A stretch of DNA of 64,000 nucleotides, taken from contig OZ244207.1 of assembly GCA_965216875.1 (NCBI GenBank), positions 3,520,001 through 3,584,000 on the forward strand, written 5' to 3'. The translations under genes were made by a program, and so were the position numbers. Positions 1,133-22,364 of this stretch are shown here, piece by piece. Below the pieces are notes generated by a model. It saw nothing but the letters and a program-made list of their open reading frames with translations, searched no databases and was not told where the DNA came from. How positions within the stretch are numbered: position 1 is the stretch's first letter; each line of letters opens with the position of its first letter. The DNA is from Rubripirellula sp. Lineage in GTDB: Bacteria > Planctomycetota > Planctomycetia > Pirellulales > Pirellulaceae.

Positions 1133-1870
1133 TCAGTTGTGTGATTGGCCGACAGCGACGGGTGGTTCAACTACTTGAAAGCCCTCGGGCACTTTCATTT
1201 CAAATCGATCTTCATTGAATTCGACCCCGTACTCGATGTCTTTGTAGACGCGTCCAAGGCTTTTTCCCGGCATGAATCTCGTTGGTGTCTTGCTCAGATC
1301 CGAGAGGCGAGTCCTGAACTCTGGATCCGAAATTGGCACCGAAAGCCCAACAAGATCTTTGGATTCGCTGTCGAACCATAGATCGACGTGCGTCGACTCG
1401 AAAACATCCGCCTTCCCACGACTGGTTTCTCGCTGCCCCGTGGCCTTCGTTGGCATGTCCTTGATAAAGTTTGCCATCCACTTGAGCATGCTTACGTCGC
1501 CATAGACGTGTATCGGATGCTCGAGCCAGGTCGCTGTCTTCGACTTCATGTCCAAATACAGCTGTTTCTTTCCCTTGTTGTCAACGATGTGCACCGACTT
1601 TACTTTCCCTTGTTCATCCAGAGCCGTGTGTCGCCAAAAACTCGGAGTACGATGCTCCACGTGATCGACGTGACCGACATCCATTGAATCGTCGTCGGCT
1701 TTTTGGAAAGACATCAGCGTGTACTTGAGAGTTTTCGAATCCTCGATGGCTTGACGAGTTCCCAGGTAGGCAATGTCATGTTTCGCTGGTTCTTCTTGGG
1801 CGTTTGAGACGTCGGAACAAAGAGCAATCGCCAGCAGAGACAACAAGCTGATCATTCGATGCGTCGCCAT
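1133..1870 (-). CDS. Secreted hypothetical protein (distal cassette)
   Basis: Signal-peptide-like N-terminus (MATHRMISLLSLLAIALC); half attC-like site at about 1912. Confidence 0.6.
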   Translation of the reverse strand: MATHRMISLLSLLAIALCSDVSNAQEEPAKHDIAYLGTRQAIEDSKTLKYTLMSFQKADDDSMDVGHVDHVEHRTPSFWRHTALDEQGKVKSVHIVDNKGKKQLYLDMKSKTATWLEHPIHVYGDVSMLKWMANFIKDMPTKATGQRETSRGKADVFESTHVDLWFDSESKDLVGLSVPISDPEFRTRLSDLSKTPTRFMPGKSLGRVYKDIEYGVEFNEDRFEMKVPEGFQVVEPPVAVGQSHN

Positions 1871-1980
1871 AAGAGACTCGACTTGAGGATGGTCAAAACC
1901 ACGATTTGCTTCCAGAACGCCGAACATCACTGGGCCAGGAAGGTTGAGTGTCCGGCACACATCGCTTGCTCGACGCCTGC

Positions 1981-2487
1981 CTACTGGAAGATTGGGTAGT
2001 CAGGGAACTCAAAATACCGAGGCACATCAGGTTTTTGAGCGTCATTGTGCTTCACAGCAACGACCGAGTCGAACCTTTCGATAGAGTCAACGTGCAAATA
2101 GATCGTGGGGCGAGCTTGACGATGTATCGAGGGTGCAAGGAGGGCTCCCGCTTGGCCCCGAACAGTCACGCGTTTCCCCTCAAAGTGCTGACGAATATCG
2201 GCAATACCAACCCGTTTTAGCGAGGCGACCACGGAAGGGACAAGCAAGACTCGAAAGCGAGCGTCCTCGGCCGCATCAAGCCAACAGTCGGGTTGCCCTG
2301 ACAGCGAGGACAATGTGACCTGACTGACTGTGAAACAAACAGCTTGTTGACTTGTGTCCAACGACTCTGCGTTTCCCTCGCACCACTGCGTCGGATTCAT
2401 GGCCCGACTTGGCGAATCAGCCTTTGAACGATGCAAAGGATGCGAGACGAGGGATGCGAGAAGCAGCGAAAAAGCGATTCGATTCAT
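1981..2487 (-). CDS. Hypothetical secreted protein, possible OB-fold
   Basis: 168-aa ORF with hydrophobic N-terminus and HFEGKRVTVRG motif. Confidence 0.5.
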   Translation of the reverse strand: MNRIAFSLLLASLVSHPLHRSKADSPSRAMNPTQWCEGNAESLDTSQQAVCFTVSQVTLSSLSGQPDCWLDAAEDARFRVLLVPSVVASLKRVGIADIRQHFEGKRVTVRGQAGALLAPSIHRQARPTIYLHVDSIERFDSVVAVKHNDAQKPDVPRYFEFPDYPIFQ

Positions 2488-2747
2488 GGCAGATCCCGCC
2501 GGTTAGGTTTTACAGATGCAGAGCAGTTCAATTCACACTCGACGGCCTGACAACTTATCTCCGATGACGGCTACGTTTGAGCTCGTTGGAACACCAATCC
2601 AAACGTCATCAGGCACGTTAACGTCAACGTCACCAGCAAGGTCAATAGGTACTGTCGCCGACGCGAGACGGCGCCTCCATCGTACCGGTTTGCCGATACA
2701 ACGCCGAGAGCGAACCCACTCGATCCCAGGCAGCAACGTCGATCTCT

Positions 2748-3323
2748 TCATCGCGTGCCGATTTCAGGATCAGGCTTTGCATAATAGAACAGGAAGTAAG
2801 ACGATTCGCCCTCGGAAATGACAGCTAGCTTGGACGAACTGCTACCGGAGTCATCGTTCGCTCGCGTGTCGATCGCCAGCATGGATTCGACGTTCTGGTC
2901 TGAATATCGATAGTGGTCTCCATCGGTGAGTGGTTCAAACGAGTGGTTGGTGATGTGCGATTCGCCGGCCCTGAGTGTGCCAAGATTGACTTCTAAGAAT
3001 CGCTTCTTAAGCCCGTCGTCAATGTCACCGCGAAATACAGCCATTTGTTCCATCGCAGTGATGTCCCCACCATCAAACGCCAGTTGATATGCCTTGGCGA
3101 GGTTTTCTTTGCTCGTGGCGGGGAGCATTGTGCGGGCCTCTTCAACGACAATCTTGCGTTTCGCAGCCTGCTCGGCATCACTCTTGGCGTTGACGCGAGC
3201 CCACATTGCATCGCGTTTGGACTGGAATGAATCTTCGGCGGATTTTTGATCGCAACCGAGAGCTAGCAGGAAAAGGGCAACGATAGAAGCGAGTGCTGGA
3301 AGCTGAGTGATTCGTGATTTCAT
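2748..3323 (-). CDS. Hypothetical lipoprotein (cassette)
   Basis: Lipobox-like LALGC after a hydrophobic stretch; starts just downstream of the attC-like site 3365-3454. Confidence 0.65.
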   Translation of the reverse strand: MKSRITQLPALASIVALFLLALGCDQKSAEDSFQSKRDAMWARVNAKSDAEQAAKRKIVVEEARTMLPATSKENLAKAYQLAFDGGDITAMEQMAVFRGDIDDGLKKRFLEVNLGTLRAGESHITNHSFEPLTDGDHYRYSDQNVESMLAIDTRANDDSGSSSSKLAVISEGESSYFLFYYAKPDPEIGTR

Positions 3324-3364
3324 GAGGCAAGCGAAACTCAAGTTGGATTGCTCAGAATGAGGCC

Positions 3365-3454
3365 AGGTAACGATGCTAGGCATCGGGCGTGCGTGGTGGA
3401 TTGTTGATCAACAAAGAGCGAAACCGTGTACTCCGGCCTACGCGATGGTCAGTG
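3365..3454 (-). repeat. Degenerate attC-like site
   Basis: aggtaac...gtcagtg, 90 bp, between two co-oriented ORFs. Confidence 0.5.
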
Positions 3455-4009
3455 TTCTTCGACGCTCGAAGAATCTGCCACCAAGTATACGATCTCGATG
3501 AGGTACGAACCGACACCGAAGACCAACAGATGCGAGAGCCCGATCAATACAACAGAAGCCTGCGTCGGAATGGCGAATTGAACGATGGCCGCACAAAGAC
3601 CGCAGAAGCACGACAGGAATGCGATGATCACTACGAAGAACGTCACTAACTGCGATCGTGCATGAGGAAGCTGCTTGAGGTAATTGCGCGACCCCACATA
3701 TGCGAGCTGAGCAGTTGCGAGAAGGTAGAAAGATGCGCCCACTAGTAGCAACGCCCAAAAGCTGGGGAGTCCCGTGCTGTAGGCGACAACAGACGCGACA
3801 AACAACGTTGCCGATAGTGCGACATAGAGGCGAGCGTAGAATCGGAATCCCCGTGCCAGTATCAATCTCGCTTCCAGTTCACTCGAATCAGCGGACACGG
3901 GCTTGCCATGCAGCGCCAGAATCAAACGCCACCAGAGCGAGTACGCACCTGTATCACGAAATGCATCTCGGACTTGAGGAGGACTTCGGACTATCTCAGC
4001 GAATTTCAT
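3449..4009 (-). CDS. Hypothetical multi-pass membrane protein (cassette)
   Basis: About four hydrophobic segments; stop codon lies in the attC-like end box. Confidence 0.6.
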   Translation of the reverse strand: MKFAEIVRSPPQVRDAFRDTGAYSLWWRLILALHGKPVSADSSELEARLILARGFRFYARLYVALSATLFVASVVAYSTGLPSFWALLLVGASFYLLATAQLAYVGSRNYLKQLPHARSQLVTFFVVIIAFLSCFCGLCAAIVQFAIPTQASVVLIGLSHLLVFGVGSYLIEIVYLVADSSSVEEH

Positions 4010-4182
4010 TATTCCAAACACCCTCACGGATTACGTGGACGCCACAAGCGAAAGTCCCTGACAGGTCAGTTGTACTGGGAGCGTAGGGGTCCATCATTTA
4101 GCATTCATTGTCGAGGTAAGAAGACTCGCGTCCTTCGCTGCAAGTCGTTGTTACCGGCATTCTTCGTTGCATCAAGTAGCAA

Positions 4183-5085
4183 TCACTCAAGTGCGTTCGC
4201 AAAAGTACTCTTCAACCGCCGGTTAATGATTCGCAGGGGAATTCCGTACGATACATTTTGACGCTCGGCGAGGGCAAGCAAGTCGTTGAACGTCACACGA
4301 ATGCTCCCGTCATCCGCCTCCCAGATCAACAGTTTTTGGCAAAAGGCATCAAGACCCAGTGTTGGTGCATTCGCCATTGCCTTGCCGCCTGGACCAGGAC
4401 CACCAAATAGAATCATTCGCGATGGTCGAGTGACGGAAACATGCTCTTTCGACCGTTCGGCGAAATCAATCGTGCCAAAGATCACGGTATCGCCCTGTGC
4501 GTTGATCGCCGATGTAACGCGCTGCAATGTTTCGTCGAAGTTGTACGGACTCTCAAGCGTGACAAGTCCTGAATCGGGCATTGCATCGGAACGAAATTCA
4601 GCGATCTCCTCAGCTGGAACGCCTTTCATCGCCAATGCGATCGAATCGCTATATCGTGATCGAAGAGCTTCATCGTCTGGCAATGAATGGCGTCTCGACA
4701 AGAATTCGTAGCGATTGGCGAGAACTCGGGCACTGCCGGACTCTTGGTCCTCGTACACCAGAACCCTAAACGGAAGGTCGATTGCCGCGATCGGATTCTT
4801 CTCGATGATGGCGGCGTCAAAGGACGGATCGGAAAAGATCAAGACATGCGAAGGAGGCATCGGTGATCTTGCTTCGGCCCCGAGTCGAGAATGATCAATG
4901 TCTACGATCACATCCAGTTCGCTACGACTGCGGACGTTGGCTTGGACGACACCGAAAATGCGGTCCGTTTCGAGATAACGTTCGGCCGAAACGGCTTCCG
5001 ATTTGCGCAAAACAAGCCACAGCGTCGTCGCGATGAACACGGCCAGCACAATGACAATCAGATTGCGCAGTGCTTTGCGACTCAT
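4183..5085 (-). CDS. DUF302-domain protein (two domains, N-terminal membrane anchor)
   Basis: DIDH...LIFSDP...AAIDLPFRVLVYED plus a second repeat (SPYNFDET...LDAFCQKLLIWE). Confidence 0.75.
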   Translation of the reverse strand: MSRKALRNLIVIVLAVFIATTLWLVLRKSEAVSAERYLETDRIFGVVQANVRSRSELDVIVDIDHSRLGAEARSPMPPSHVLIFSDPSFDAAIIEKNPIAAIDLPFRVLVYEDQESGSARVLANRYEFLSRRHSLPDDEALRSRYSDSIALAMKGVPAEEIAEFRSDAMPDSGLVTLESPYNFDETLQRVTSAINAQGDTVIFGTIDFAERSKEHVSVTRPSRMILFGGPGPGGKAMANAPTLGLDAFCQKLLIWEADDGSIRVTFNDLLALAERQNVSYGIPLRIINRRLKSTFANALE

Positions 5086-5135
5086 TGTTCCTTGCTCACG
5101 TAAATGGTTCCTTGCTCACGTAAAGCCCTCAAAGA

Positions 5136-5226
5136 GACAAACGGCGGCGTTGACTGAGGACCGTCAATGCGGCAGCCATCTGGCTGAACGCGACACGCCG
5201 TCCTTCGATCGATGTCATGGTTCGCT
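5136..5226 (-). repeat. attC-like site (degenerate)
   Basis: gacaaac...gtcatggttcgct, 91 bp. Confidence 0.55.
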
Positions 5227-5271
5227 GGTGGTAGCGGTGCGTCTAGCTCTAAGTGTCATGCATCCGGCTGC

Positions 5272-5380
5272 CACTCTCCCTTGGGCCCTTGGGAGAGTCG
5301 GGCTCTCAGGCCCGGAGAGGGGCACCGCGAATGGCCCTCCCCGGGCTTTAGGCCCGACCCTCCCACAAGTGAGAGGGTAA
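5272..5380. repeat. Palindromic REP/MITE-like element; second copy at 57274-57380
   Basis: cactctccc...gggagagtcgggctct.aggcccggagaggg...ccctccccgg...ccgaccctccc shared by both loci. Confidence 0.75.
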
Positions 5381-5866
5381 TTCCTGTTGAAACAATGTGT
5401 GACATTTAGAGCGAGATCAAGCAGTAGCAGACCGAAGCACCGATTGCTTCGCAACGTTCATCAACCCTATCGAACGCATCGTCGCGCGCCAAATCCGACC
5501 GCGCACTCGAATCCGAAGAGCACGTGTTTCGCTCGTTTCGAGTATTTCGCGATTGCCCAACTGTCACCACATCGATTTGTGTTGTGCGGAATGAATGGAA
5601 CCGCGAAAGATGCGAAATTGGCGAAAAAGCTGCTTTGATGGGCGGCTTAAGACGGGAGCGACCAGGTTTTCCATCACCGTCAACGGAGGACGCTGGCAAA
5701 CGAGCATCGCGATTAATTCCGAGCGCATCATCAGTGTCGATTAGCGTGAATCAGTGTTCCGTTCGCGCGCATCGCAAGGAACACTGATCGACGACGTCAC
5801 CGAGGACCGCCAATTTGGTTGCCGGTCGTAAGCGCGCCCCGCGCGGCGCTTCGGCGCACGACATTG

Positions 5867-6712
5867 TCACCTGTGCTTTGAAGCGTGGATTGACTCCGCC
5901 ACAGCCGAAACGGCGCAAACAACAACATCTTTGTCACAGCCATAGAGACTCGCGAAACTAAAACCGCCTACCTCGAGCAAACGATATTCGCTGTCGGCAG
6001 TTCGGCAAACATCAACTACCCAGACCGGGTCGGGTTGATAACCTGCGGTCGCAACAGACCGGGCAAATTCCAGTGCAGCCGGATCCTCAGACGGTAGCGC
6101 AACCTCTTCTCCATCATCGACATACTTGGAGCCAGTGACGACCTCGCCATTTGCAACGACATATCGCCACTCCGCGACGATCCGCTTGGGAGAGCTAACG
6201 ACGACCAACGAATCGGTGGGAAATTCGTAGAACCCCATGTACTCGAAGTCCTTGTCGAAAGTCTCGCGAGATATCGTCAATCCAGTAAAGATCTTCAGCG
6301 GTGAATCCGGGCGCACGAACAGCTGGCCGTCTGAACCGAGCGCGTCAAAAAGGAAGCCACGGCAACGTGGAAGTTCGGCGTCTGGCAACATGATGCAGTC
6401 GCGATTCAATAGAAACCGACCAAAGTGTTCGTAGTAGTGCGAGCAGAAGAAACGGGGCACGGTCGCGAACGCCCCCGGCGTCCAGAGGTTGTCATTCCTA
6501 ACACGTGAAACCAAGTCGATGTCAGCGTGTGCGACGACACAGGCGCCTCGGGGAAACGCTTTGCGATACGAAGAACGAACGTCGTCCCATTCGTAAGGAG
6601 GGTTAGGTCGATTAACCGAAGCGACCTCGTGCCCGTTGCGTGTAACAGCTGCGGCAAGTTCGTCATGGTACGAATCAAAGACACCCGCATCGATAAGCCA
6701 GCCAACCATCAT
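5867..6712 (-). CDS. ATP-grasp domain protein (DUF4343/R2K-like), cassette
   Basis: FVRPDSPLKIFTG, EWRYVVANGEVVTGSKY and VVDVC...LLEVGGFSFASLY motifs. Confidence 0.7.
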   Translation of the reverse strand: MMVGWLIDAGVFDSYHDELAAAVTRNGHEVASVNRPNPPYEWDDVRSSYRKAFPRGACVVAHADIDLVSRVRNDNLWTPGAFATVPRFFCSHYYEHFGRFLLNRDCIMLPDAELPRCRGFLFDALGSDGQLFVRPDSPLKIFTGLTISRETFDKDFEYMGFYEFPTDSLVVVSSPKRIVAEWRYVVANGEVVTGSKYVDDGEEVALPSEDPAALEFARSVATAGYQPDPVWVVDVCRTADSEYRLLEVGGFSFASLYGCDKDVVVCAVSAVAESIHASKHR

Positions 6713-7213
6713 TCAATCTTCATCGAGTAACGACCGCGATCACCGGGCCGCGGCAATCGACCTGCCTAGGCGAAAGACACCAATAGCAATCGCGAGCAAG
6801 AGCCAACGTCGAGCAGTCCGCCGAGAGTGACCACTTGTCATCAGATTTGACGACGTGATGAGGACATTTGCTCGTTTGCCGAAGCGCCCGGCAGCCCTTC
6901 GGAGAATGTCATGGTTCGCTGATAGAGAGAAGCAACCGTCGCCCCCAAACGTGCGACAGCATCGAAAAACAAATCGATCGCCTCCATCAGTGTCGAATAG
7001 CGTCGATCAGTGTTCCGACAGCGCTCATTACATCAAGACGGTGTGTGCTTCGCGTCAATTGCAACCTCCTTAATCGTAACCTTTCGAATCACGGGGTCGC
7101 CACGAGCAATCCTCGACTTCAACAACCACGATTCGCCAATCGTCAACCGGCCATTTGCATTCAGTACATCGCGGGGTACGCAATCATTCATCCGACGGTG
7201 GTTGTGTTTGTGG

Positions 7214-7420
7214 TTAGATGCCCGACAGGAAATCGATCAGCGACTCAACGGGCGATTGCCCGGGTGCCCAAGTCCACCCGAAGTGTATCCGGACTGCGCG
7301 GATGCCGGCCGGAAGTAGAATGAAAAATGCAATCAGAAGAAGCCAGAACCAGCGTCGCTTGCGCCCTCGATCTCTGCCGGGCGTGTCGCTCGTTTCGTTG
7401 TGTGCCGTTAGTTTCGACAT
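7214..7420 (-). CDS. Small membrane protein (cassette)
   Basis: 68 aa, basic patch then one TM segment; flanked by attC remnants at about 7074 and 7487-7570. Confidence 0.45.
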   Translation of the reverse strand: MSKLTAHNETSDTPGRDRGRKRRWFWLLLIAFFILLPAGIRAVRIHFGWTWAPGQSPVESLIDFLSGI

Positions 7421-7676
7421 GAGTGTACCAATAACGCGTGCAGTCACATCAAAATCGCAGCCTGCGGAACGTTCCAGCCCGACAAATCGTAACAATCACC
7501 CGGCCGCGGCGTGCGACCCAATCACAGAGTAGCCTCGACTCCGTGTGTTCGTGTGCATCGGTAGTTTCGCCGCTCTGTTCCGAAGGGCCGTCGACCATCG
7601 CCGATGACAGTTCCTTGCTTGTTTCGCCGGCGGGAAACTCGGCCGCTGCGAAAAAGGCGACCACCGCCGCTCCCTA

Positions 7677-8135
7677 TCACCGCTGTTTCGGCCCATCGCC
7701 GCGTTCCGATGGTAGTGTGGTTGGGACCGACGCCCCAAAAGCCTCGTTCCATACCGAACGAATGAAAGGAGTAATCATGAAGTACTCCTCGGCGTTGGAG
7801 GCGTCGAAGCAGCACCAGCGGTACAGCAAGTGGGCAAGTGTATCAGAATCGATAATCAGGATGCGGCGGAGCTGCTCGAGTGTAGCGTCACCAACCGAGC
7901 CGAGTGCGAGGCCCTCGTCCACCGAGCCAATGGTTATCGCAGCCAATGCAAAACGGAAGTTGGAGTCCGGATCGTTGACGTCGTACCCAGCGATAAAGTC
8001 GTTGGCGCGAGCAGGGTCGGCGAGAATGTGCTCCCAGTCCTGATCATGCACACCGTAGGGAAGATCGAATTGACGTTCAACGCGACGGCACGCATCGGGA
8101 ACGGTAAAGCGATCCGAAGGCTCACGAATGGTCAT
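7677..8135 (-). CDS. Hypothetical protein (cassette)
   Basis: 152-aa ORF co-oriented within the array. Confidence 0.55.
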   Translation of the reverse strand: MTIREPSDRFTVPDACRRVERQFDLPYGVHDQDWEHILADPARANDFIAGYDVNDPDSNFRFALAAITIGSVDEGLALGSVGDATLEQLRRILIIDSDTLAHLLYRWCCFDASNAEEYFMITPFIRSVWNEAFGASVPTTLPSERGDGPKQR

Positions 8136-8205
8136 GAAGTAGCAAGCATGTCAGTCGAGTAACAGAATCATCCCTCTCCGCTTGATTCAATCTGCGCAAT
8201 TACGT

Positions 8206-8439
8206 TCAAGGACTCTTGCGATCTGAGAGGACGTCTACAATGATCGATGGTGAACTTCCTTGCCGCTCGTATTCTCCGATTGCCATCTGGACAGCTTCTA
8301 CATCCCCGTCTTGGAGAGCCTCGCCAATAAGCCGAAATGCTGCATTGCTATGGGCGTCTCGCAATTTGATCTCCACGGCATACGCGTAAATCACGGCAAT
8401 CAGGAACAGAATCAATCCTGCGATTAATAAGATTCGCAT
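8206..8439 (-). CDS. Small membrane-anchored protein (cassette)
   Basis: MRILLIAGLILFLIAVIYAY N-terminus, downstream of attC 8509-8597. Confidence 0.5.
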   Translation of the reverse strand: MRILLIAGLILFLIAVIYAYAVEIKLRDAHSNAAFRLIGEALQDGDVEAVQMAIGEYERQGSSPSIIVDVLSDRKSP

Positions 8440-8508
8440 CGAGATATTAAAGATCCTTCTCCCGTTTCCAGGCAAAGGGAGGTTGTCCTCTTGTGCTCCA
8501 CTTCTGTC

Positions 8509-8597
8509 GGGTAACGACCGCGATGACCGAGTCTCAGAATTGTGGTGTCCCAGTAAAAAGTCCCTACCCGCGACTTCGGTCCATCGCTTGGTTCTGC
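8509..8597 (-). repeat. attC-like site
   Basis: gggtaac...gttctgc, 89 bp; inner arms resemble site 17871-17962. Confidence 0.8.
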
Positions 8598-9166
8598 CTT
8601 CTTTTGCGGCTTGCCTCAAGCAACGGCAAGCATATGTCTTCCTCAAGCCAGAAACAATCACGTCGTGCTCGGTCATGCTTCCACCCGCGATCAATGGCAG
8701 CGTCGATGAACGCCTTCGCCAGATCCTCCGTGCAATCGTCGCGGGTGATGGTGCAGTAGGTGGCCAATAGTTGGCCCTTGGGATGCCCCACATTCTTGAT
8801 CTTCAAATGAAGTCCACCCTTTGCGTCCGGGTACCAAGAGAATTGATCGCCCCTGTAATCAAGGATGCGTGGGAATCCGTAAAAGCAATCAAGGACGCGT
8901 TCATCGGTGAGTCCCGTATCTTGATCATCGTTCCCGTGCGGATCCCAGCCGTGCTCCAACGCGACATCGATCAGACGCCGAACGATTGCGGGCGTTACGT
9001 CGCCGTCGTAGTCGCAGCGAGCAAACAGTGATGGTCCGTTGGGATTGTCATCGGCAACAACGGTCACGGTCCGCGTCCATGGACAGTCCATGTCGTAGTG
9101 GAAGCGCCAGCGGAACACTTGCTCGCGGACCGTAATGCGATTCGAGTTTCGTTTTGGAGAAGCCAT
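8564..9166 (-). CDS. Hypothetical protein with internal duplication (cassette)
   Basis: Two similar halves (VRRLIDVALEHGW / AKAFIDAAIDRGW); C-terminus runs into the attC site. Confidence 0.6.
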   Translation of the reverse strand: MASPKRNSNRITVREQVFRWRFHYDMDCPWTRTVTVVADDNPNGPSLFARCDYDGDVTPAIVRRLIDVALEHGWDPHGNDDQDTGLTDERVLDCFYGFPRILDYRGDQFSWYPDAKGGLHLKIKNVGHPKGQLLATYCTITRDDCTEDLAKAFIDAAIDRGWKHDRARRDCFWLEEDICLPLLEASRKRRQNQAMDRSRG

Positions 9167-9176
9167 CAACGCTTGG

Positions 9177-9734: not shown

Positions 9735-9736
9735 AG

Positions 9737-13337: not shown

Positions 13338-13369
13338 GTTCGTCAGTCGTTGCAGCAAGTAGTTTTGTC

Positions 13370-13459: not shown

Positions 13460-13472
13460 GCATGATGACGTG

Positions 13473-13901: not shown

Positions 13902-13911
13902 TCCCTCGTCC

Positions 13912-14002
13912 ATCCAACGCGACGGATCACGCGGTCGCCGCGAGCGATCCTCAACTTCAAAAACCACGACTCGGCGACTCGTCGTGCATCCGATGATTAT
14001 TC
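13912..14002 (-). repeat. attC-like site
   Basis: atccaac..ggatcacg..gtcgccg...cggcgac..cgtgcatcc..attattc, 91 bp. Confidence 0.75.
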
Positions 14003-14419
14003 TCCCTCGTCAGCAAAAAAGTGTGCCATTTGCGATTCGTCCCATTCGTGGGTTGTTGATGCGTCGGCGGGTGGCGGGAAGCCAGTGCGACAGCAACCCA
14101 CGCTGTCAGCGAAATTGTAAACCGCATGGGGGTAGGAATTGATAAAGAGCGCAGCCTTCATTCCATCACCGGACCAAATGATATGCATCTCTGAAGGCTT
14201 GTCTCGATCGGCGACAGATTGAACGTTGTAAATGTGAAGTGCATCAACGATGGGATTGTCTACCTTCTCCCTATCGAGAGCGTAGAAGTACCCGGTCTCG
14301 CCATCGTCTTCGAAAACGGCTTGATACCGTCCGATTGAAGAATCCGATTGCACGACGCTCTCGACGCCGACAGAGAGCGTTTCATTGGTTACGACACTGG
14401 CGGCGAGTCGAGGTGGCAT
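13997..14419 (-). CDS. DUF2251-like protein (cassette)
   Basis: VFEDDGETGYFYALD...DALHIYNV...WSGDG...CRTGFPPP motifs. Confidence 0.75.
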   Translation of the reverse strand: MPPRLAASVVTNETLSVGVESVVQSDSSIGRYQAVFEDDGETGYFYALDREKVDNPIVDALHIYNVQSVADRDKPSEMHIIWSGDGMKAALFINSYPHAVYNFADSVGCCRTGFPPPADASTTHEWDESQMAHFFADEGE

Positions 14420-14489
14420 ATCATTTATCCGCGAAGGTTGAGTGTGTGATGAAGGCGACGGGACATTGGCTAAATCCGGTAGAAACCAT

Positions 14490-15050
14490 GCGGAACGGGC
14501 GAATGACCTGCAAGCAGAGCAATAACCCTCACTCCCGTCCTCGTGTGGAATTCATTGTTCTGTGCGGTTTGTTCGTTTGGTTCCTGGAGCGAAACAAAGC
14601 TGCGATCCGTGAAACCAATGACGGTCTCCGAGGCCACAATGAGCGAAACGCCAGGCGGTCGGTCTTGCGATCACAGAAGTCTTCGAATCTACCAATCTTA
14701 TTGATCACGTCCATGAGCTCGAAAATTTCAGTGTGCGTTCGGCCAAAGCAACACGTCAAAGAATGTGGCTGCGTGGCGAGCATCCGCGTATAGAGCAACG
14801 GAGGCAAATACGGTTGCCACCAGATCACATCCCCGGTGGTCGTGAACGAACCTTGCCACAAGGCGATCCGCCACATCGTTGTCGGATCGGGAATCCGGTT
14901 CGATCAATTCGTAGATTCGTTCGATCAGACAAGTCATCGGTCAAACAAAAGGCAAGGGATTCCTAACCCACAACGGTACAGTCCGCGAGTTTCCACTTTC
15001 CATTGTAGAACACCCGGCTATCGCGACTTGGGTGCACCGCGTGGTTCGCG
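14490..15050 (-). pseudogene. Degraded cassette (only fragmentary ORFs) with shortened attC at 14490-14563
   Basis: No ORF spans the cassette; fragments such as 14728-14937; damaged flanking sites. Confidence 0.4.
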
Positions 15051-15145
15051 GATTAACAATTCGCTCGTGCAGCGGATAGGAAACGATCCAGCGATCATCC
15101 ATTTCAAAATCACGCACAAGACGGACTTCGCATGCATCGCATTGG

Positions 15146-15793
15146 TTATCCCGCGTTCGCAAAAAGTTCGTTCACAACGGAGAGCTGTTTGGGTTGAGGA
15201 GCGAGCTGACGATTCCCATCAAAAAAGGGTTCCAATATCCAATGCTCAGGTCCAATGTATCCAATTTGAGACCAAGCCTCAAAAAAACTATTCAATGGCA
15301 TGTTGAACGTGAACGAATCCGCGTCGTGCGATAGGTAATTCACCGAGGCAGTCTCTAAGTCCAGCCCAAGATAGTCACCATTGCGAAGCGCCATGAATGG
15401 AAGGGTGTTAAGCCAAAACGCCTGATCTTGCCGAAATTCATCATCATTGAGCCATGATGATACCGCGAAGTTTCGGCATTGCTTCAAGTTACCTGTTAGT
15501 AAATCGACATCAATCACGACACCGCCATGAATAAAGTCTCCGAGTCCGATTTGGCCCGCAACTTCAACCAATGGTTCTGGCAGTTCCCATCCGTAGTTGA
15601 AGGAAAGTGCGGCAGTCTTTGTGAGAAGTTCTTTTAAGCCCGTCGGAATTTCAAAACCTAGATCAGTTTCAACTGAGGCTAGGCGTTCCATGGTAGCAGC
15701 AGGGGATTGGCGGAGTGCGAGAGAGTCAAACTCGCCGGGAAGTTCGCCAAGTTTGCCGTGGAATGCTTCGATGTTGTCGGGGATTGGTTTCAT
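15146..15793 (-). CDS. SMI1/KNR4 (SUKH) family immunity-like protein (cassette)
   Basis: PAATMERLASVETDLGFEIPTGLKELL and NGDYLGLD...VNYLSHD motifs. Confidence 0.8.
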   Translation of the reverse strand: MKPIPDNIEAFHGKLGELPGEFDSLALRQSPAATMERLASVETDLGFEIPTGLKELLTKTAALSFNYGWELPEPLVEVAGQIGLGDFIHGGVVIDVDLLTGNLKQCRNFAVSSWLNDDEFRQDQAFWLNTLPFMALRNGDYLGLDLETASVNYLSHDADSFTFNMPLNSFFEAWSQIGYIGPEHWILEPFFDGNRQLAPQPKQLSVVNELFANAG

Positions 15794-15798
15794 GAGCG

Positions 15799-15887
15799 GG
15801 ATAACGGCGGCGTTGACCGGGCGACGCCATGGTGGTGTCCATTTCAATCCGTCTCATGCATCGCTCCGGTCCAACACATGGTTCCCT
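15799..15887 (-). repeat. attC-like site
   Basis: ggataac..gttgaccgg...ccggtccaac..gttccct, 89 bp. Confidence 0.85.
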
Positions 15888-16035
15888 GCTACATCGACCG
15901 TGCCAGCATCGCTCAGATAGTAAATCGGGTGACAAGCTTGCGGTGTAATCCGTAGATGAGCTCATGAAGCACAAGGGGCGATTACATAGCGCAAAGATCC
16001 TCAGCACACAGTCAACAAGGAAACGCCAATAACTC

Positions 16036-16126
16036 GGGGAACGGAGGACATCACGGGGGACGATGAGTTTGGCCTTCATTCTAGCAAACGCCGGGAGGCC
16101 TCCTCCCGCGCATGTCATGGTTCAGC
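16036..16126 (-). repeat. attC-like site
   Basis: ggggaac..gacatcacggg...cccgcgcatgtc..gttcagc, 91 bp. Confidence 0.85.
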
Positions 16127-16792
16127 CTCGGTGTTAACGATTGCATTCAGTTTGCCTTGATACTCTGCGGCCAGAGCATCATCCCCCTTTTTGTTGGCAA
16201 TCAGGATGCCCGCCTCGTATGCGCTGGGATCGTTGGGAAATCCGGTGAGTAGTTTCTGCACGTCCGACTCTGCGTCCGCAATTCTGTCCAGTTTCACCAT
16301 CGCCTCCACGCGAAATCGCAGATTCTGTGCATGAACAGAAGTGTCCGCACAAGCGTCATTTGCCGCATCGAGATACGGGATCGCGTCCTGGTACTTTTTC
16401 AAGAGCACAGCATCTCGGCCCAATGCATGGTTCGCACCACAGTGTTTTGGATCAACCGCTAAGGCTTCACGATAGTGGACGTCCGCCTGTTCCAATTCTC
16501 GCTGTTTCCAGTAGCAATCGCCCAAAGAAGCGTAATTGGTCGCCGTTGGAGATCGATCAACCAACTGCTGAAACAGTTTTACTGCTTCGTCATACTGCTC
16601 GGCGTCGAGACGCTCCTCAGCCAATTCAAGTAGTTGGCCCGCGCTAAGTTCAGCGACAACATCGAGAGACGCAGTTTCTCCCGGTGCAACGCCGTTGGCA
16701 GTACGACTTGAATCGCCACTACAGCCACAGCAGAGGGATAGGGTGGCGATCAAACAGACTTCGGATATGCGTGTGCGTCGAGCAGGATGCAT
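16115..16792 (-). CDS. TPR-repeat lipoprotein (cassette)
   Basis: TPR helices (YASLGDCYW, ANHALGRDA); Cys lipobox-like N-terminus; stop lies inside attC. Confidence 0.8.
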   Translation of the reverse strand: MHPARRTRISEVCLIATLSLCCGCSGDSSRTANGVAPGETASLDVVAELSAGQLLELAEERLDAEQYDEAVKLFQQLVDRSPTATNYASLGDCYWKQRELEQADVHYREALAVDPKHCGANHALGRDAVLLKKYQDAIPYLDAANDACADTSVHAQNLRFRVEAMVKLDRIADAESDVQKLLTGFPNDPSAYEAGILIANKKGDDALAAEYQGKLNAIVNTEAEP

Positions 16793-16827
16793 GATGCTGT
16801 CCTAAAAGTGTTGACAAAGTTTCTTTG

Positions 16828-16918
16828 GCCGAACGACCCGAGTCACCGGGCCCCGTAAGGTGAGCATCCATTCGTGAAAACGATCCCACGGGCCTCCGTG
16901 TACACGCGATGGTTATGC
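16828..16918 (-). repeat. attC-like site
   Basis: gccgaac...gttatgc, 91 bp; same subfamily as 19036-19126 and 20857-20946 (agcatccatt loop). Confidence 0.85.
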
Positions 16919-16926
16919 CTCAGTCT

Positions 16927-17184
16927 TCATCCTTGCGTTGTCAGGTAACAGTGCGACAAATTCGCCCCAGTTCTTACACAACACGTTCGCGTGATCGCTA
17001 ACGTAGGGAAACGCAGATGCCCATATCGCGCCCGATTCAACCGTTTCGCTTCGGTGAGAAACACACCACAGGAGTCGATGATCGTTTTAATGGCGGCCAA
17101 ACGCTCTCCAGCAATGATGAGAGCGTCTATCTCATCTCGCTGCGATTGCATGAGCGCATCAAATTCAGGTGTCGTGCTTGACAT
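16927..17184 (-). CDS. Small hypothetical protein (cassette)
   Basis: 85-aa ORF between two attC-like sites. Confidence 0.5.
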   Translation of the reverse strand: MSSTTPEFDALMQSQRDEIDALIIAGERLAAIKTIIDSCGVFLTEAKRLNRARYGHLRFPTLAITRTCCVRTGANLSHCYLTTQG

Positions 17185-17248
17185 AGCGTGATCGAGTTAT
17201 AACCCATTCGAGAATCTCGAAAGGCGAGTTAATAGGATCGTAGTAGTC

Positions 17249-17336
17249 GCAGAACGGCAATGTTTACCGGGTCCGAGCGGAAAGGCAACCATTACCCAAC
17301 AGCAACTCGAGACTCCGGTACGTCACATGGTCATAC
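17249..17336 (-). repeat. attC-like site
   Basis: gcagaac...gtcatac, 88 bp. Confidence 0.75.
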
Positions 17337-17351
17337 CGCCATTCAGTGGTG

Positions 17352-17442
17352 GGATAACCTTCCGCATCAGCGGGCGGCGGGAGTCGAGTCACCGTTTATT
17401 CAAACGTCTCCACTGCCATTCCGTTGCATGCGATGGTCCGCC
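17352..17442 (-). repeat. attC-like site
   Basis: ggataac..gcatcagcgg...ccgttgcatgc..gtccgcc, 91 bp. Confidence 0.8.
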
Positions 17443-17765
17443 GCGATTTCTGCGTCTAGGGTTGCATTCGGTTCAACACCGGCTGACCGAAGCCCTGACT
17501 TCCATGCAGCGTGCACCAAGTAGAGCATTGCGATTTGCGGGGCCCAGCAACAGGCAGTCCCAGGCACAACAGCGAACGCTGACCTTGGAGAGTCGAAAAT
17601 AGCCGAAACTGAATACGCGATGCATATCATGCCGGCCAAAACAACAACAGCTATGCGGTATCGGATTAGACGCGTGCGGCCGTAACGAGAAAGCCCGAAA
17701 GCAATCGCAGGTCCGAAAAAATAGGTGAATGCAAGTGTTATTAAAGTCCCGGGCAATCCAAGCAT
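17400..17765 (-). CDS. Membrane protein (cassette)
   Basis: Three hydrophobic segments; C-terminus reads into the attC site. Confidence 0.5.
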   Translation of the reverse strand: MLGLPGTLITLAFTYFFGPAIAFGLSRYGRTRLIRYRIAVVVLAGMICIAYSVSAIFDSPRSAFAVVPGTACCWAPQIAMLYLVHAAWKSGLRSAGVEPNATLDAEIAADHRMQRNGSGDV

Positions 17766-17870
17766 TCGGGCAAACGCGAGAACGCATGCCAGAACCGTAG
17801 TGGCAACGATCAGGTGCCAAATACGGAATTGGGTCGGTTCAAGGCGTACGTTCAGTTGGCTACTCCAGTC

Positions 17871-17962
17871 GGCGAACGACCGCGATAACCGAGTCGCGGG
17901 AGTTGATTGTCCATTGCGAAGTCGCCCGACTACCGCGACTTCGGTTCATCGCTTGGTTCGCC
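17871..17962 (-). repeat. attC-like site
   Basis: ggcgaac..gcgataaccgagtcgcgg...ccgcgacttcggttcatcgc..gttcgcc, 92 bp, near-perfect stem. Confidence 0.9.
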
Positions 17963-18496
17963 GCGATTTTCAAAATAGGTGCGAGTGACGTAGTCCGATT
18001 CTCGATAGTCAACATGGCACTCGATGCACGATCCGATTTTACCAGACGCGAATACCCGCCTCGATGTGCCATCGACAATCGAGTATTCCCAGTCGCCATG
18101 CTCGCGATCGTATCCAGTCGGCATTTTTCGCATCACGGTATAAATTTCAATCTTTGGTTTGTCCTTGTCAGGTAGCTTTGCTTTTACGATTAGCGAGTCG
18201 ACAGGATATACGCCACTTCCACTGATCATTGTTTTCTTTGCAGTTTCGTTGACGTAGACGTTGCAATATGCGGTCCGGATGAAACCTTCGTGCAAATTGT
18301 GAGGAAGTTCGATTGGCGGGCGGCAAAGAGCGGCCGTTGAATCAAACATTGGATGCGGCTCTTCGGTGACAAGGTGCAACGATTTCAGATTCGTAATGAC
18401 TGAAACGAGTGCAGAATCATGGGTGCTGTTCTCTGCGGCCAATGCATGGATCGCTGCGATGAAAAGCAAACCAGTAAAGATGAGTAGGTATCTCAT
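17930..18496 (-). CDS. Cytochrome P460-family protein (cassette)
   Basis: Signal peptide; YPVDSLIVK, VMRK, GDWEY and a C-terminal CIECH heme motif. Confidence 0.8.
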   Translation of the reverse strand: MRYLLIFTGLLFIAAIHALAAENSTHDSALVSVITNLKSLHLVTEEPHPMFDSTAALCRPPIELPHNLHEGFIRTAYCNVYVNETAKKTMISGSGVYPVDSLIVKAKLPDKDKPKIEIYTVMRKMPTGYDREHGDWEYSIVDGTSRRVFASGKIGSCIECHVDYRESDYVTRTYFENRGEPSDEPKSR

Positions 18497-18512
18497 TGGA
18501 TCTTTCCCCGTC

Positions 18513-18602
18513 GGCGAACGACTGGGATAACCGGGCCGCCGAGGTTGATGCTCCATTTGAAAACGCGATGTCGGCGGCTACGTGTGCATGCCTTGGTTAT
18601 CT
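18513..18602 (-). repeat. attC-like site
   Basis: ggcgaac...gccgccga...tcggcggc...gtgcat..gttatct, 90 bp. Confidence 0.85.
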
Positions 18603-18655
18603 GGCCTCAGTGCGATCGAAACGAACTGAAGCCGACGTCCAAGCTGGGCAACCAA

Positions 18656-18943
18656 TTACTCGGTTGTTGACGTTGGGCCGTGCGATCCGCCATCAACGAA
18701 CATGTGTGTTGATTGCCAATAGTATCGACAGTCCTTGTCTTCGTTCAAACTGTTCAACCTCATGACTTCGTTTTGAGCCTCCCTAGCATCGAAAACGATT
18801 TCTTTGACCTTTACGTTTGCGGGACCCGGTGCAGGCAATGTCTCGCCATCAATTGTGTATTCGTCAACGTGGCCTTCATTTCCCCAGTTGTCGACGCGAA
18901 TGACCGCATAGCCCTGTTTGTAGGTTGGTTGTTGTTCTGACAT
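18656..18943 (-). CDS. Hypothetical protein (cassette)
   Basis: 95-aa ORF (MSEQQPTYKQGYAVIRVD) between attC sites. Confidence 0.55.
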   Translation of the reverse strand: MSEQQPTYKQGYAVIRVDNWGNEGHVDEYTIDGETLPAPGPANVKVKEIVFDAREAQNEVMRLNSLNEDKDCRYYWQSTHMFVDGGSHGPTSTTE

Positions 18944-19035
18944 AAGAGCAAGGCGATTTGCGGCAGCGCGGCAAGGGAATCGTAGGCCGCCAAATCGCAT
19001 CTGCGTTGCGTAAACGGAGAATTGAAACCTGGGCC

Positions 19036-19126
19036 AAATAGCGTCACGCGTCACCGGGGCCCGTGAGTTGAGCATCCATTGGAGAAAACCAACCAACGGG
19101 CCTCCGCGTGCACGCGATGGTTACCC
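19036..19126 (-). repeat. attC-like site
   Basis: aaatagc (AAC changed to AGC)..cgcgtcac...gtgcacgcg..gttaccc, 91 bp. Confidence 0.85.
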
Positions 19127-19585
19127 CTTCGGTTTTTTGCGGTGCACGCCAATTTTCTCATGTATTTGATTGGGGTCTTCACCAGTCTGAATGTAATCAT
19201 AAATCAACTTGTCTGGATCGCCGGCGTAACTCCATGTGCGACCGCTGGTCAGACGGACGTAGTCCAAAGGTACGTCTGAGTCTTGAATTTCAGCAATGGT
19301 GACCTCCCAGTCGACGATGATAAACGATTGCAGCTGCTCGAATGTCCAAGCGTAGTGTTCGGGAACGGCGAGACGATCATATTCGTCACGCAGATCGTGC
19401 CATCCAGTTGGCCATTCACCCGAAGTGCGTATGTGATCAATGATGAATATTGCAGTCCAGTCTGAAGCGTATGCTTCACGCGGGTTAGGAAGCACTTGCT
19501 TGACGAACGACAACGCTTTTGCAATTCCGAATGCGGCAATCGCACATGTAGTCAACGCCACGACAGTAATCAAGACGGGTCGCAT
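19121..19585 (-). CDS. Membrane-anchored hypothetical protein (cassette)
   Basis: N-terminal TM segment; stop in the attC box; AGGAG upstream. Confidence 0.65.
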   Translation of the reverse strand: MRPVLITVVALTTCAIAAFGIAKALSFVKQVLPNPREAYASDWTAIFIIDHIRTSGEWPTGWHDLRDEYDRLAVPEHYAWTFEQLQSFIIVDWEVTIAEIQDSDVPLDYVRLTSGRTWSYAGDPDKLIYDYIQTGEDPNQIHEKIGVHRKKPKG

Positions 19586-19613
19586 GGAATGTCAGCTCGG
19601 GTGCTCCTAGTTG

Positions 19614-19702
19614 GGGTAACGGCCGCCATCACCGAGCCCGGCCAATGTGGTTTCGATTTGTAATCGCCCCATGCCTTGCTCCGGTGCATGACATGGTTAT
19701 CC
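19614..19702 (-). repeat. attC-like site
   Basis: gggtaac..catcaccgagc...gctccggtgcatg..gttatcc, 89 bp. Confidence 0.9.
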
Positions 19703-19705
19703 GCG

Positions 19706-20269
19706 TCATGATTCGAGTATGCGTTCAAGTTCTTCTCTGCGGTCAAGCAACGGAAGAACGCGTTTGCGAAAGTAACGCAAAGTGCGATCATCCAGCTTAA
19801 ACGATCCGCGCAGCATATTACATAACGTCTCGGAATGCTCGTTAATGTACGAAAGCGCGGCCTGGCCATGATCTTTCCGTTGCTCACGATGAAGCCGGAT
19901 TGCGACGTTCAACACGCCTGGACAACATGTGTAGGATCGAGGGAATGCCAATCCACACTTCTCGCACCAATTTACGCCGGCGGGTAAGTATGCGACGCAG
20001 AATACGCCGAGCGCCTCATCACTCGGAATGCTCGGAACAATGTCGTGGAATTCGTGACCAACGCGATCGGAACTGTGGCGAAACAATTCCGTCCCGCATT
20101 GGGAACAACGACCGCCGTTAGAAGTGTACTCGGCAGATTGGAACGATCCGCCACAGACCGAACAGATCGAGCAGACAGGGTAAAGCGCTTCGTACTCGCG
20201 ACGCTCGTCGAGTGTGGCTGTCCCGTCCAAGAGTCTGGTCGCGAGTTGAGTGGCCCGTTCAGTCGGCAT
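19706..20269 (-). CDS. Cys-rich (Zn-finger-like) hypothetical protein (cassette)
   Basis: CSICSVC, CSQC, CEKC and CCP motifs. Confidence 0.6.
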   Translation of the reverse strand: MPTERATQLATRLLDGTATLDERREYEALYPVCSICSVCGGSFQSAEYTSNGGRCSQCGTELFRHSSDRVGHEFHDIVPSIPSDEALGVFCVAYLPAGVNWCEKCGLAFPRSYTCCPGVLNVAIRLHREQRKDHGQAALSYINEHSETLCNMLRGSFKLDDRTLRYFRKRVLPLLDRREELERILES

Positions 20270-20280
20270 CTATCTTGTTC

Positions 20281-20370
20281 GCATAACGTCACAAATCACA
20301 CGGCGGCGACGAAAATCGTGATTTCAAAACAGACTCGGCTTCGCCGCTCGTGTGCATTCGATGGTTATCC
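20281..20370 (-). repeat. attC-like site
   Basis: gcataac..aatcacacggcggcga...tcgccgctcgtgtgcatt..gttatcc, 90 bp. Confidence 0.9.
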
Positions 20371-20760
20371 GTCTTTGTCCGAGTTGATGCACGTCTGTTC
20401 CTGCGGTCGACCGAAGCGCACACCAAAAACCACAGTAACAACGCCGAGAGGAATAGCCAATCCGAATAATGGTGAGAGGGCTGGGATCGAAACCCCAAGC
20501 CCAAGCGCGGCACAAAGATGTGCACTAGGACTGCGAAACAATTGTACCGAGCCGATGATGGTAGCTGCACTCAGTAGGACGCCGGCGAGATGTACGAATA
20601 GTCCAATTGCGTGGGCTCCTTGAGTCGAGACAATTTCGATGTTGCGGAGGGCGACAGCGAAGCCAGCCGTGTTTCGAGAGTAAACGACCCAGAAGCCGCC
20701 AAGATGAGCCAACAGACCAAGCACGGCAGTCATCAAAATCGCAACGGAAATAATCCTCAT
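20365..20760 (-). CDS. Membrane protein (cassette)
   Basis: About four hydrophobic segments; stop in the attC box. Confidence 0.6.
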   Translation of the reverse strand: MRIISVAILMTAVLGLLAHLGGFWVVYSRNTAGFAVALRNIEIVSTQGAHAIGLFVHLAGVLLSAATIIGSVQLFRSPSAHLCAALGLGVSIPALSPLFGLAIPLGVVTVVFGVRFGRPQEQTCINSDKDG

Positions 20761-20856
20761 GACGATCAGGCGGTAAGTGGAATCGAGCGTACTATTCTGA
20801 CCATGTCACGAACGGAGCTTGGAAAACGATGAGCCGTTCAATACTCACGCGCGAAC

Positions 20857-20946
20857 GGATAACGACTAGGATCAGCGGTGACCGGGAGTTCAGCATCCAT
20901 TCGTGAAAGCTGGCCACCGGTCCTCAGGTGCATCCGAGGGTTATCC
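20857..20946 (-). repeat. attC-like site
   Basis: ggataac..ggatcagc...gtgcatcc..gttatcc, 90 bp, with perfectly complementary end boxes. Confidence 0.9.
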
Positions 20947-21540
20947 AATATGCCCAACGCACTCCTCGAACAAATTGCAATACTCAGGGATCAGCGAGAC
21001 AGTTCGATCGTTCCATTCTTCAGCAAAGCTCGCCGTGAAAGTATGCCAAAGACTGTCGTCTTCAAACTTTTTGTAATACGCGGGACGCCAGTACTCAACG
21101 GGCGATGCCTCGACGAATAGTGATTGCGTCACTGCAAAACGGAAAAAGTCAAATCGAAAGGAGGCAGTACTGCGAGCCGCAACGCTCGGAGTGTAAAAAT
21201 CGTATCGAATGACGCCCAGGATCTCGGGTTCCGAATCATGAAGATGACGTTGTTGCTCGATTGCACTCTTCAAATCGGGGTTTGCATCCAGCACTTGTGG
21301 CGGGCGGATGGACAACTTCGTCGTTGCGAAGTGACCGTCGCCATGCCACTGTAGTTTTTTGCCGAACCCCAATGCGAATCTCTCGACTTCGGAAACGACC
21401 TGGGAGTCAATCGGGTATTCCAACCTGTCCCATATTCGACGCACGCAAGCAACCGCGAAAAGGCGTAGCGGGTTATCGGGAACTGTCCCATGTACCGCAT
21501 CGAGCAGTTGTCCAAGCGGAGAAGACGAAATGGGAAGCAT
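20941..21540 (-). CDS. Hypothetical protein (cassette 2)
   Basis: LRLFAVACVRRIW motif recalls expanded planctomycete families; stop in the attC box. Confidence 0.6.
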   Translation of the reverse strand: MLPISSSPLGQLLDAVHGTVPDNPLRLFAVACVRRIWDRLEYPIDSQVVSEVERFALGFGKKLQWHGDGHFATTKLSIRPPQVLDANPDLKSAIEQQRHLHDSEPEILGVIRYDFYTPSVAARSTASFRFDFFRFAVTQSLFVEASPVEYWRPAYYKKFEDDSLWHTFTASFAEEWNDRTVSLIPEYCNLFEECVGHIG

Positions 21541-21596
21541 GTGAGTACTCTTGTTTACCGCAAACCCAGATTTCAGCGACGAGCACGACTCTCATC

Positions 21597-21688
21597 GGAT
21601 AACGGCCCGGCATCACGGGGCACGAAGAGTTGACTATCCATTGGGAATAACGACGCAAGCCGTGCTCCCGTGCATGTCATTGTTCTGC
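21597..21688 (-). repeat. attC-like site of the first cassette
   Basis: ggataac..gcatcacggggcacg...cgtgctcccgtgcatgt..gttctgc, 92 bp. Confidence 0.9.
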
Positions 21689-22168
21689 TCGTTCTTCTGA
21701 CCGGATGAGCTTCGCAAGTCGGTCAATCGTAGATCGAGACGAAAATGTGGCCAGGAAATCGTCTAAGAGCGTCGGGGCAACGTCCGCGTCAATTGTAGTG
21801 TAGTCGCCATCCGAAATTTGAATCAATTTCTGGGAGGCGGGCAGCTCGACAATGCGATCCTTCAGTTCGATCGTTGCAGAGGATTCGTAGTCACTGCCGG
21901 ACGAGGTGACAGTGAAAAGAGACGTCAGTTCCCGTCGTACAGAAAGTCGTTCTATGACAACAAAGTCAACGGTGTCCAAGGTTGGGTCATGCTTGTGCCG
22001 CCTAATCCCGGTGTGAATCATTGCAATCCCGTTTGCATCGCTTGTGGATCGCGTAGTGATGTCTCGCGGGTGGAACGGTTGATACGGATTGTTTGCGATG
22101 TAGATCGCAGCAACTGCGGTCAACATTAGCAGTGAAGCAATCGAGAACCGGAACCGATGCAATTTCAT
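21677..22168 (-). CDS. Membrane-anchored hypothetical protein (cassette 1)
   Basis: Planctomycete-type RFSIASLLMLTAVAA N-terminus; ends inside attC. Confidence 0.65.
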   Translation of the reverse strand: MKLHRFRFSIASLLMLTAVAAIYIANNPYQPFHPRDITTRSTSDANGIAMIHTGIRRHKHDPTLDTVDFVVIERLSVRRELTSLFTVTSSGSDYESSATIELKDRIVELPASQKLIQISDGDYTTIDADVAPTLLDDFLATFSSRSTIDRLAKLIRSEERAEQ

Positions 22169-22174
22169 TGCGTA

Positions 22175-22194
22175 GCAGAATTTATCTATTAGCT
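22175..22194 (-). other. Putative attI simple site (AGCTAAT-AGATAA-A/TTCTGC)
   Basis: TTCTGC just upstream of ORF1 is complementary to the GCAGAA of cassette 1's own attC end box; no attC hairpin lies upstream. Confidence 0.6.
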
Positions 22195-22203
22195 GTTGAA
22201 CGG

Positions 22204-22343
22204 GTGAGAATACGGCGTGCTGGCTGTTCTCACTGGGTGGACCTTCGGTACGGTCGGTGACACGCGCCTTGATCCTCGTATTCTCACTTGTCGCTCCAGT
22301 ATTCTCACCGGTTAGGTGGCAACCACTCTGGGGGCATTCTCAC
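22204..22343. promoter_or_regulatory. Five copies of a GTGAGAATAC-like motif (putative protein-binding sites)
   Basis: 22204-22213 (+); 22225-22233, 22278-22287, 22299-22308 and 22334-22343 (-). Confidence 0.65.
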
Positions 22344-22364
22344 CGTCGGCCTTTGGGTTGTCAA
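22336..22364 (-). promoter_or_regulatory. Putative cassette promoter Pc (sigma70-type)
   Basis: TTGACA (22364-22359), 17-bp spacer, GAGAAT (22341-22336), pointing into the array. Confidence 0.6.

Follow-up and report, generated by a model that had tools for sequence, protein, structure and literature searches.

An integrase-less cassette array with its own attI in Rubripirellula sp., a probable satellite of a distant integron integrase

Clusters of attC sites without an integron integrase gene (intI) are known as CALINs. They are about as common as complete integrons (PMC4889954, PMC9024848). As far as the portions of the sources cited in this text go, four origins have been listed, including loss of intI, rearrangement and secondary sites, and IntI_Cterm pseudogenes were found near 15 of 279 CALINs (Cury et al., PMC4889954). 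Half of the CALINs lie in IntI-encoding genomes (PMC4889954, PMC9024848), and service in trans has been named as a possibility (PMC9668308; bioRxiv 2025.06.18.660453). Outside class 1-3 integrons, the attI site is described as unknown or undetected (PMC4889954; Neron et al. 2022, PMC9024848), and for most integrons it cannot be searched for (PMC4889954), with which IntegronFinder 2 concurs (PMC9024848). Here we describe a cassette array in a 64-kb stretch of Rubripirellula sp. DNA (the window; C1:3520001-3584000 of a genome, G000, that forms one contig of 8.26 Mb). We put at roughly 0.7 the probability that this array is a satellite integron, i.e. that a duplicated platform lost intI, was then served in trans and is now mostly a cassette reservoir. 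The genome provides a direct route to such arrays, with the leader beside intI used as query for attI copies. Found in it are arrays that have an attI and a promoter of their own but no integrase, a remnant of the N-terminal end of intI, and a cassette exchanged between arrays that lie far apart.

One integrase and four attI-headed arrays

A single integron integrase gene is present in the genome (C1:1815045-1816538), 1.7 Mb from the window. It encodes 497 aa without internal stops and matches TIGR02249 with 412.8 bits (cut-off 265) over model positions 1-315, which is the full model; PF00589 and PF13495 also match. About 118 extra N-terminal residues precede the start of the family model (L001:1144-2637), and the stubs beside satellites are pieces of this extension. 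None of the six PF00589 (tyrosine recombinase) matches of the genome falls in the window. An earlier note, made from the letters of the window, had supposed an array without integrase that is served by an enzyme encoded elsewhere; it was right about the absent recombinase and the distant integrase, and overlooked that a 101-nt 5' stub of intI is left at 22437-22537. With only this stub nearby, the window array has no integron integrase of its own; an intact intI beside attI, as in a complete integron, occurs at the locus 1.7 Mb away and not in the window.

A search for the leader at 22181-22367 gave four copies in the genome, 88-92% identical: one beside intI (I), one in the window (W), one at 1.148 Mb (C) and one at 0.237 Mb (D). 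Only one of the four has intI. A genome-wide attC scan gave 95 matches at E<10, of which 87 lay within four clusters; at the head of every cluster is one of the leader copies. At E<1, 85 of 86 matches were inside these clusters, and the reversed-genome control gave none. The intI-linked array has about 40 attC sites. Two internal cassette duplications in it (G000:C1 1791100-1814725; 95% over 547 nt and 97% over 553 nt) are signs of past reshuffling. Altogether, the genome carries three satellites plus one intact integrase.

The leader was read as Pc plus attI because the four copies agree from just upstream of TTGACA-17-GAGAAT to the crossover, where homology stops, and because the start of the first cassette complements its own R'' box in each of the four arrays (4/4). 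Both Pc-like hexamers are invariant across all copies, and in C and D the homology begins about ten bases upstream of the -35 box. Among the leader motifs are the repeated GTGAGAA(T/C)A and an inverted TATTCTCACC. The W leader is a copy of the intI-adjacent site with 15 differences per 190 nt and ends at the crossover of cassette 1; the earlier claim that an attI-like site and a Pc-like promoter were kept is thus well founded. The GTT crossover triplet of the other three copies is ATT in the window, where TTCTGC complements the R'' box of cassette 1, GCAGAAC. A spanning contig of sequencing run X4, which may be source-related, agrees with the A and has 0 differences. The DNA of this leader was not detected in any of the 40 relatives searched, nor an exact motif in any metagenome contig searched.

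In the window, a DNA profile that was seeded with 20 sites picked there by hand and then refined with the four arrays detected 33 attC-like sites (1913-21688), uniformly oriented with the cassette strand minus, between the minus-strand open reading frames (ORFs) of the array. A separate covariance model, built from the same 20 hand-picked sites, found 29 sites on one strand (1912-21688), namely the 20 training sites and 9 others; the rest of its output was 2 opposite-strand echoes and 1 weak match (E 0.74) elsewhere in the 64 kb. A hand-written hairpin scan produced too many false sites and was dropped for the profiles. In the 20 chosen sites, 86.3% of the cells of the bottom-strand stems were paired, versus 62.0% after shuffling and 28-43% in slid controls. 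Compensatory changes on both sides were seen in 15 of 17 stem pairs, the covariation score was reached by 0 of 500 shuffles, and bulged columns were present, as for the extrahelical bases of attC. The sites thus show the R'' AAC, the R' GTT, the imperfect bottom-strand hairpin and the extrahelical bases of attC, and by either model they form a cluster of at least two, as a CALIN does. Folding was no better for bottom strands than for top strands (12 of 25 window sites), and Rfam gave 0 matches.

The attC-type array of minus-strand ORFs proposed earlier is therefore borne out. Its palindromes, described as mostly 88-92 bp with AAC and GTT boxes, were of that length in 13 of the 18 sites that keep both boxes; the AAC or GTT box is missing in the other 15 of 33. 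A long open frame is still held by 24 of 28 cassette-sized units, and the proximal ORFs fill their cassettes. Pfam matches were obtained for 7 of the 30 array ORFs, the few distal ones including SMI1/KNR4, DUF2251, metallophosphoesterase, R2K ATP-grasp and DUF302, and PADLOC gave 1 weak match only among the 30. Two attC sites about 16 nt apart form an ORF-less cassette (17249-17442, the 17352/17249 unit), and a tandem remnant at 12243-12409 resembles it. At the distal end the array may have been drawn too long: the last ORF, 1133-1960, lies past the last detected attC (1912-2005), and its status as a cassette is therefore unsupported.

Duplication, loss of intI and probable service in trans

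The alignment of W with the intI locus extends to either side of the gene: 91% identity over 22181-22398, a 61-bp gap, 89-94% over 22399-22537, which includes the first 101 nt of intI, and, beyond a gap of 1,449 bp, 85-89% to the repeats 3' of intI. This alignment shows the platform in the window to be a second copy of the intI locus from which intI was deleted. The whole platform, consisting of intI, Pc, attI and the repeats behind intI, was duplicated, and the copy then lost intI, probably by deletion between short matching sequences, leaving Pc-attI, the 5' stub and the repeats; in the intact locus the two ends of the 1,449-bp gap have AGAGAGTC in common. The 61-bp deletion may have removed the integrase promoter, and the promoter scan called none there. 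C and D retain less of the intI locus than W. One repeat type is found at 13 genome loci, four of which are the four platform heads, and this suggests that C and D are whole-platform duplicates as well. The duplication with its deleted gene, the existence of three satellites and the change of the crossover G to A were all missed in the earlier note. The flanking genes are about 500 kb apart in G002, a genome of the same genus, and a check of about 1.5 kb around three homologues gave no attC; synteny thus gave no age for the insertion.

The support for service in trans is good in the case of satellite D. Its cassette 2 is 100% identical to cassette 2 of the intI array from the G/TT crossover to the next crossover (the slash marks the crossover point), and since D has no integrase, recent action of IntI at this satellite is most likely. 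From gene conversion one would not expect boundaries at both crossovers. Likewise, in G002 an attI without intI in the 10 kb fetched is followed first by a cassette that matches, at 99.6% over 557 nt and with exact boundaries, the first cassette of the intI-bearing array; the two attI cores differ. In terms of known chemistry, a single diffusible IntI could recognise its own attI anywhere and insert cassettes at a copy in trans. Each satellite would add a promoter-proximal slot, so that more cassettes could be expressed at once with no extra integrase.

That W was served in trans in the past is likely, and this rests on a sister strain, 1-5% different, in the metagenome run X7. One X7 contig, 22306-22760, crosses both deletion junctions, and the leader is covered at about four times the single-copy depth. 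As the X7 strain carries the same deletions, the deletion is older than the split of the strains. All 4 X7 attI contigs depart from the leader at 22175 into unlike letters, which argues that the array head changed at the crossover since the split. X7 has no cover at 19475-22126 and little at 16823-19474, and this hole was not used as evidence; runs X5 and X6, which look like thin traces of the same strain, were left out. One X7 contig runs from 6962 straight on to 14590 and so lacks 7.6 kb of the array; the two points are not attC crossovers. This joint and that of 3562-4169 were rejected as IntI events, as neither is on GTT crossovers. No excised-circle joint was among the joints listed for the sequencing runs. 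In 8 of 10 relatives, the attI-flanking loci (about 1.5 kb per locus) contained no cassette-sized shared block of at least 300 nt; the shared blocks of G182 look like mobile elements and were rejected as shared cassettes.

Present state of the window array and rival explanations

Perfect matches between cassette start and R'' box were counted at 4/11 in W, 30/31 in I, 9/10 in D and 3/7 in C. Cassettes 1-3 of W have such matches, as integron cassettes do. The scores of the W attC sites drop with distance from attI (rho -0.78), and over the first 12 sites the median fold z was -1.0 in W, -3.25 in I and -2.9 in D (p 0.03 versus D, 0.02 pooled). The newest cassettes, taken to be intact in the earlier note, are so with respect to their ORFs and to the R boxes of cassettes 1-3, and not with respect to the stems, which are eroded, or to the sites without a box. 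Three of the 6 private attI changes of W are in the last 10 nt (p 0.002, for a region chosen after looking). As the AAC box of cassette 1 is normal, the G-to-A change at the crossover presumably followed the insertion of this cassette. In IntI1 assays, a change at the crossover base in one partner only resulted in 10^3-10^4 fold less recombination (PMC2811028); given this cost, W is probably no longer a working capture site, and with the array eroding it may have turned mostly into a cassette reservoir. Taken alone, the W array is of limited interest, as it is probably a tired member of a four-array set.

Several points weigh against a satellite that was served in trans and then retired. W has no cassette in common with the other three arrays, and its leader (91% versus the intI copy) is hardly more conserved than the dead stub (89%) or the repeats (85-89%), a margin that gives no sign of selection on this attI. 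The deletion-bearing X7 contig stops at 22306 and is physically unlinked to any cassette, X7 being a metagenome. The cost of the G-to-A change is a figure for IntI1, not for the enzyme of this genome. Furthermore, the fold difference between W and the intI array alone had p 0.07, and on a profile built from relatives the first 8 W attC sites scored like those of I (medians 46 and 45, p 0.88); the proximal decay is therefore modest.

Part of this evidence would also fit a plain fossil, i.e. a second complete integron whose own intI gathered all the cassettes before the gene was lost, with nothing but decay afterwards. The stub and the deletion, the lack of shared cassettes, the decay gradient together with the mutated crossover and a leader no better conserved than the stub would all be expected from it, and intI loss is among the four CALIN origins (PMC4889954). 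We nevertheless consider it unlikely, as the sister strain with the same deletions has 4 attI contigs that all part from cassette 1 at the crossover, D took part in a recent cassette exchange and cassettes 1-3 retain perfect R-box matches.

Still less probable is a satellite that is fully active today, with IntI inserting at the W attI and Pc expressing the cassettes. The hexamers of the predicted promoter are intact, the first 8 attC sites score equal to those of the intI array and the proximal ORFs fill their cassettes. Set against this are the crossover A where I, C and D have G, the heavy cost of a one-sided change for IntI1 (PMC2811028), the 15 of 33 sites without a box and the lack of a recent shared cassette. 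That W broke away from the main array as a block through rearrangement, or was assembled at a secondary (attG) site, is very improbable: both routes are described for CALINs (PMC4889954; bioRxiv 2022.09.11.507474), but such an origin would yield no attI copy and is contradicted already by the intI-locus alignment, as W possesses an attI that differs by 8% from the one beside intI, and has intI flanks on both sides. The satellite served in trans, as first suggested for W, thus holds well for D and likely for the past of W, but probably not for W as it is now.

Relatives, neighbouring features and known systems

Of 200 family genomes, 125 gave IntI matches. Seven leaders that adjoin intI served as queries against 18 selected genomes of the family, which are complete or nearly so and, with one exception, have intI; these genomes are kin, and the counts are not independent. 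The search gave 48 loci in 11 of the 18 genomes, of which 24 loci in 8 genomes were satellite-like: an attC follows at most 1.5 kb downstream, and the 1.5 kb upstream contain no full intI; intI could lie beyond this distance, as at G192's own locus. A 5' intI stub was seen at 5 of the 24. Seven of the 18 genomes, searched with leaders other than their own, had no attI match. Where genomes were searched with their own leader, satellite-like copies of it were present in 4 of 7; the exceptions were G100 with none, G133 with copies only for another leader type and G192, whose identical second leader copy has no attC within 1.5 kb. Leader matches numbered 10 versus 1 intI match in G204 and 7 versus 1 in G182 (10 intI candidates scored per genome). 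G001, a genome of the genus (84% complete), had 10 copies of one leader type, 4 of another and 6 intI matches, among them several partial ones, and G002 had 3 copies of one leader type.

It is possible, and we propose it tentatively, that the family runs a distributed integron by repeated duplication of whole integrons, in which the copies shed intI and the Pc-attI units left are kept by selection as extra expressed docking sites for one integrase. If so, many CALINs of this lineage would be satellites in service now or until recently, and their life cycle would consist of birth by duplication, service in trans and death by crossover mutation; I would be complete, D active and C and W declining. 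Four natural attI variants and one enzyme offer a ready test of trans service and of docking-site retirement.

Some further observations were made in the relatives. The G001 arrays (L055, L059, L060, L061, L063, L068) have six attI copies of two types with related first units, which begin TTCTGGCATT and carry CGTACT repeats; many cassettes of about 590 nt recur at 98-100% across these arrays. In G204 (L128:1834-3350) and at L147 and L150, an IS91-family transposase (PF04986, PF14319) is the first unit at G/TT. Its attC lies 1.43 kb downstream, and the unit is 99% identical at the intI-linked attI and a satellite attI. G113 has a similar transposase gene after attI, as judged by eye. In G002 (L033:5000-6860), the attI beside intact intI appears interrupted by a transposase-like insert, which we take to be IS1380-like.

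Table 1 Features of the array and its platform in the window (positions within the 64 kb)
Feature	Position	Strand	Details
Dispersed REP-like repeat	1104..1135		Distal end, past ORF 1133-1960; 17 loci
21 distal, progressively degraded attC sites and ORFs	1912..15798	-	Profile, box scores
Dispersed repeat of about 190 bp within the array	5230..5425		10 other genome places match at at least 120 nt
12 attI-proximal attC sites and ORFs	15799..21688	-	Profile and covariance model; attC at 21597, 20857, 20281, 19614, 19036, 18513, 17871, 17352, 17249, 16828, 16036, 15799
Cassette 1	21597..22180	-	ORF 21677-22168 without Pfam match; attC 21597-21688
attI crossover	22175..22181	-	A/TTCTGC in the window, G/TT in the other three copies
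Pc-attI leader	22181..22367	-	One of four genome copies; 15-23 differences/190 nt between pairs
Pc-like promoter	22336..22364	-	Predicted; TTGACA-17-GAGAAT, 10/12 consensus match
61-bp deletion junction	22398..22399		Alignment; relative to the intI locus (C1:1814943-1815003), upstream of intI start
intI 5' stub, 101 nt	22437..22537	+	Identity to intact intI about 89%; stops at the 1,449-bp deletion
Dispersed-repeat cluster	22538..23510	+	About 85% to DNA just 3' of intact intI

Outside the array, the window contains a MoxR-vWA-beta-propeller ternary system cluster (35313-43754; bpX4, bpMoxR, bpX2, bpX0/bpX1, bpX3), a gene for a 3,039-aa protein with DUF4347 and Ig/cadherin-like domains (47946-57065) and, 4 kb past the platform head, ilvC and ilvN-like genes (26198-27884). 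The resemblance of the latter neighbours to the Xanthomonas ilvD integron site is probably a coincidence.

No paper on duplicated Pc-attI satellites was found in the literature searched, most subscription papers and supplements being outside its scope. Like the CALINs of PMC4889954 and PMC9024848, W is an attC cluster without nearby intI, and intI loss is a listed origin of these. It is far larger than their average of 5-6 attC sites (PMC4889954, PMC9024848), and unlike them it keeps a cognate Pc-attI, in a genome with three such arrays; its intI remnant is N-terminal and would be invisible to the IntI_Cterm pseudogene search of PMC4889954. A sedentary chromosomal integron, with intI, Pc, attI and a long array, has the same parts and chemistry and attC sites homogeneous in length, whereas here one integrase is combined with four attI-headed arrays across the chromosome. 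In Xanthomonas integrons, too, intI decays beside the array, and CALINs are said to be mobilisable in trans (bioRxiv 2025.06.18.660453). There, the decay takes place at a single ilvD locus and, in the cited portion of that study, no attI copies are reported for CALINs at other loci, whereas the present genome has an intact intI together with duplicated attI platforms. Secondary attG sites and SALINs (bioRxiv 2022.09.11.507474) are likewise a case of IntI at work outside its own locus; attG sites are unlike attI in both sequence and structure, whereas the satellites described here are headed by true attI duplicates with a predicted promoter.

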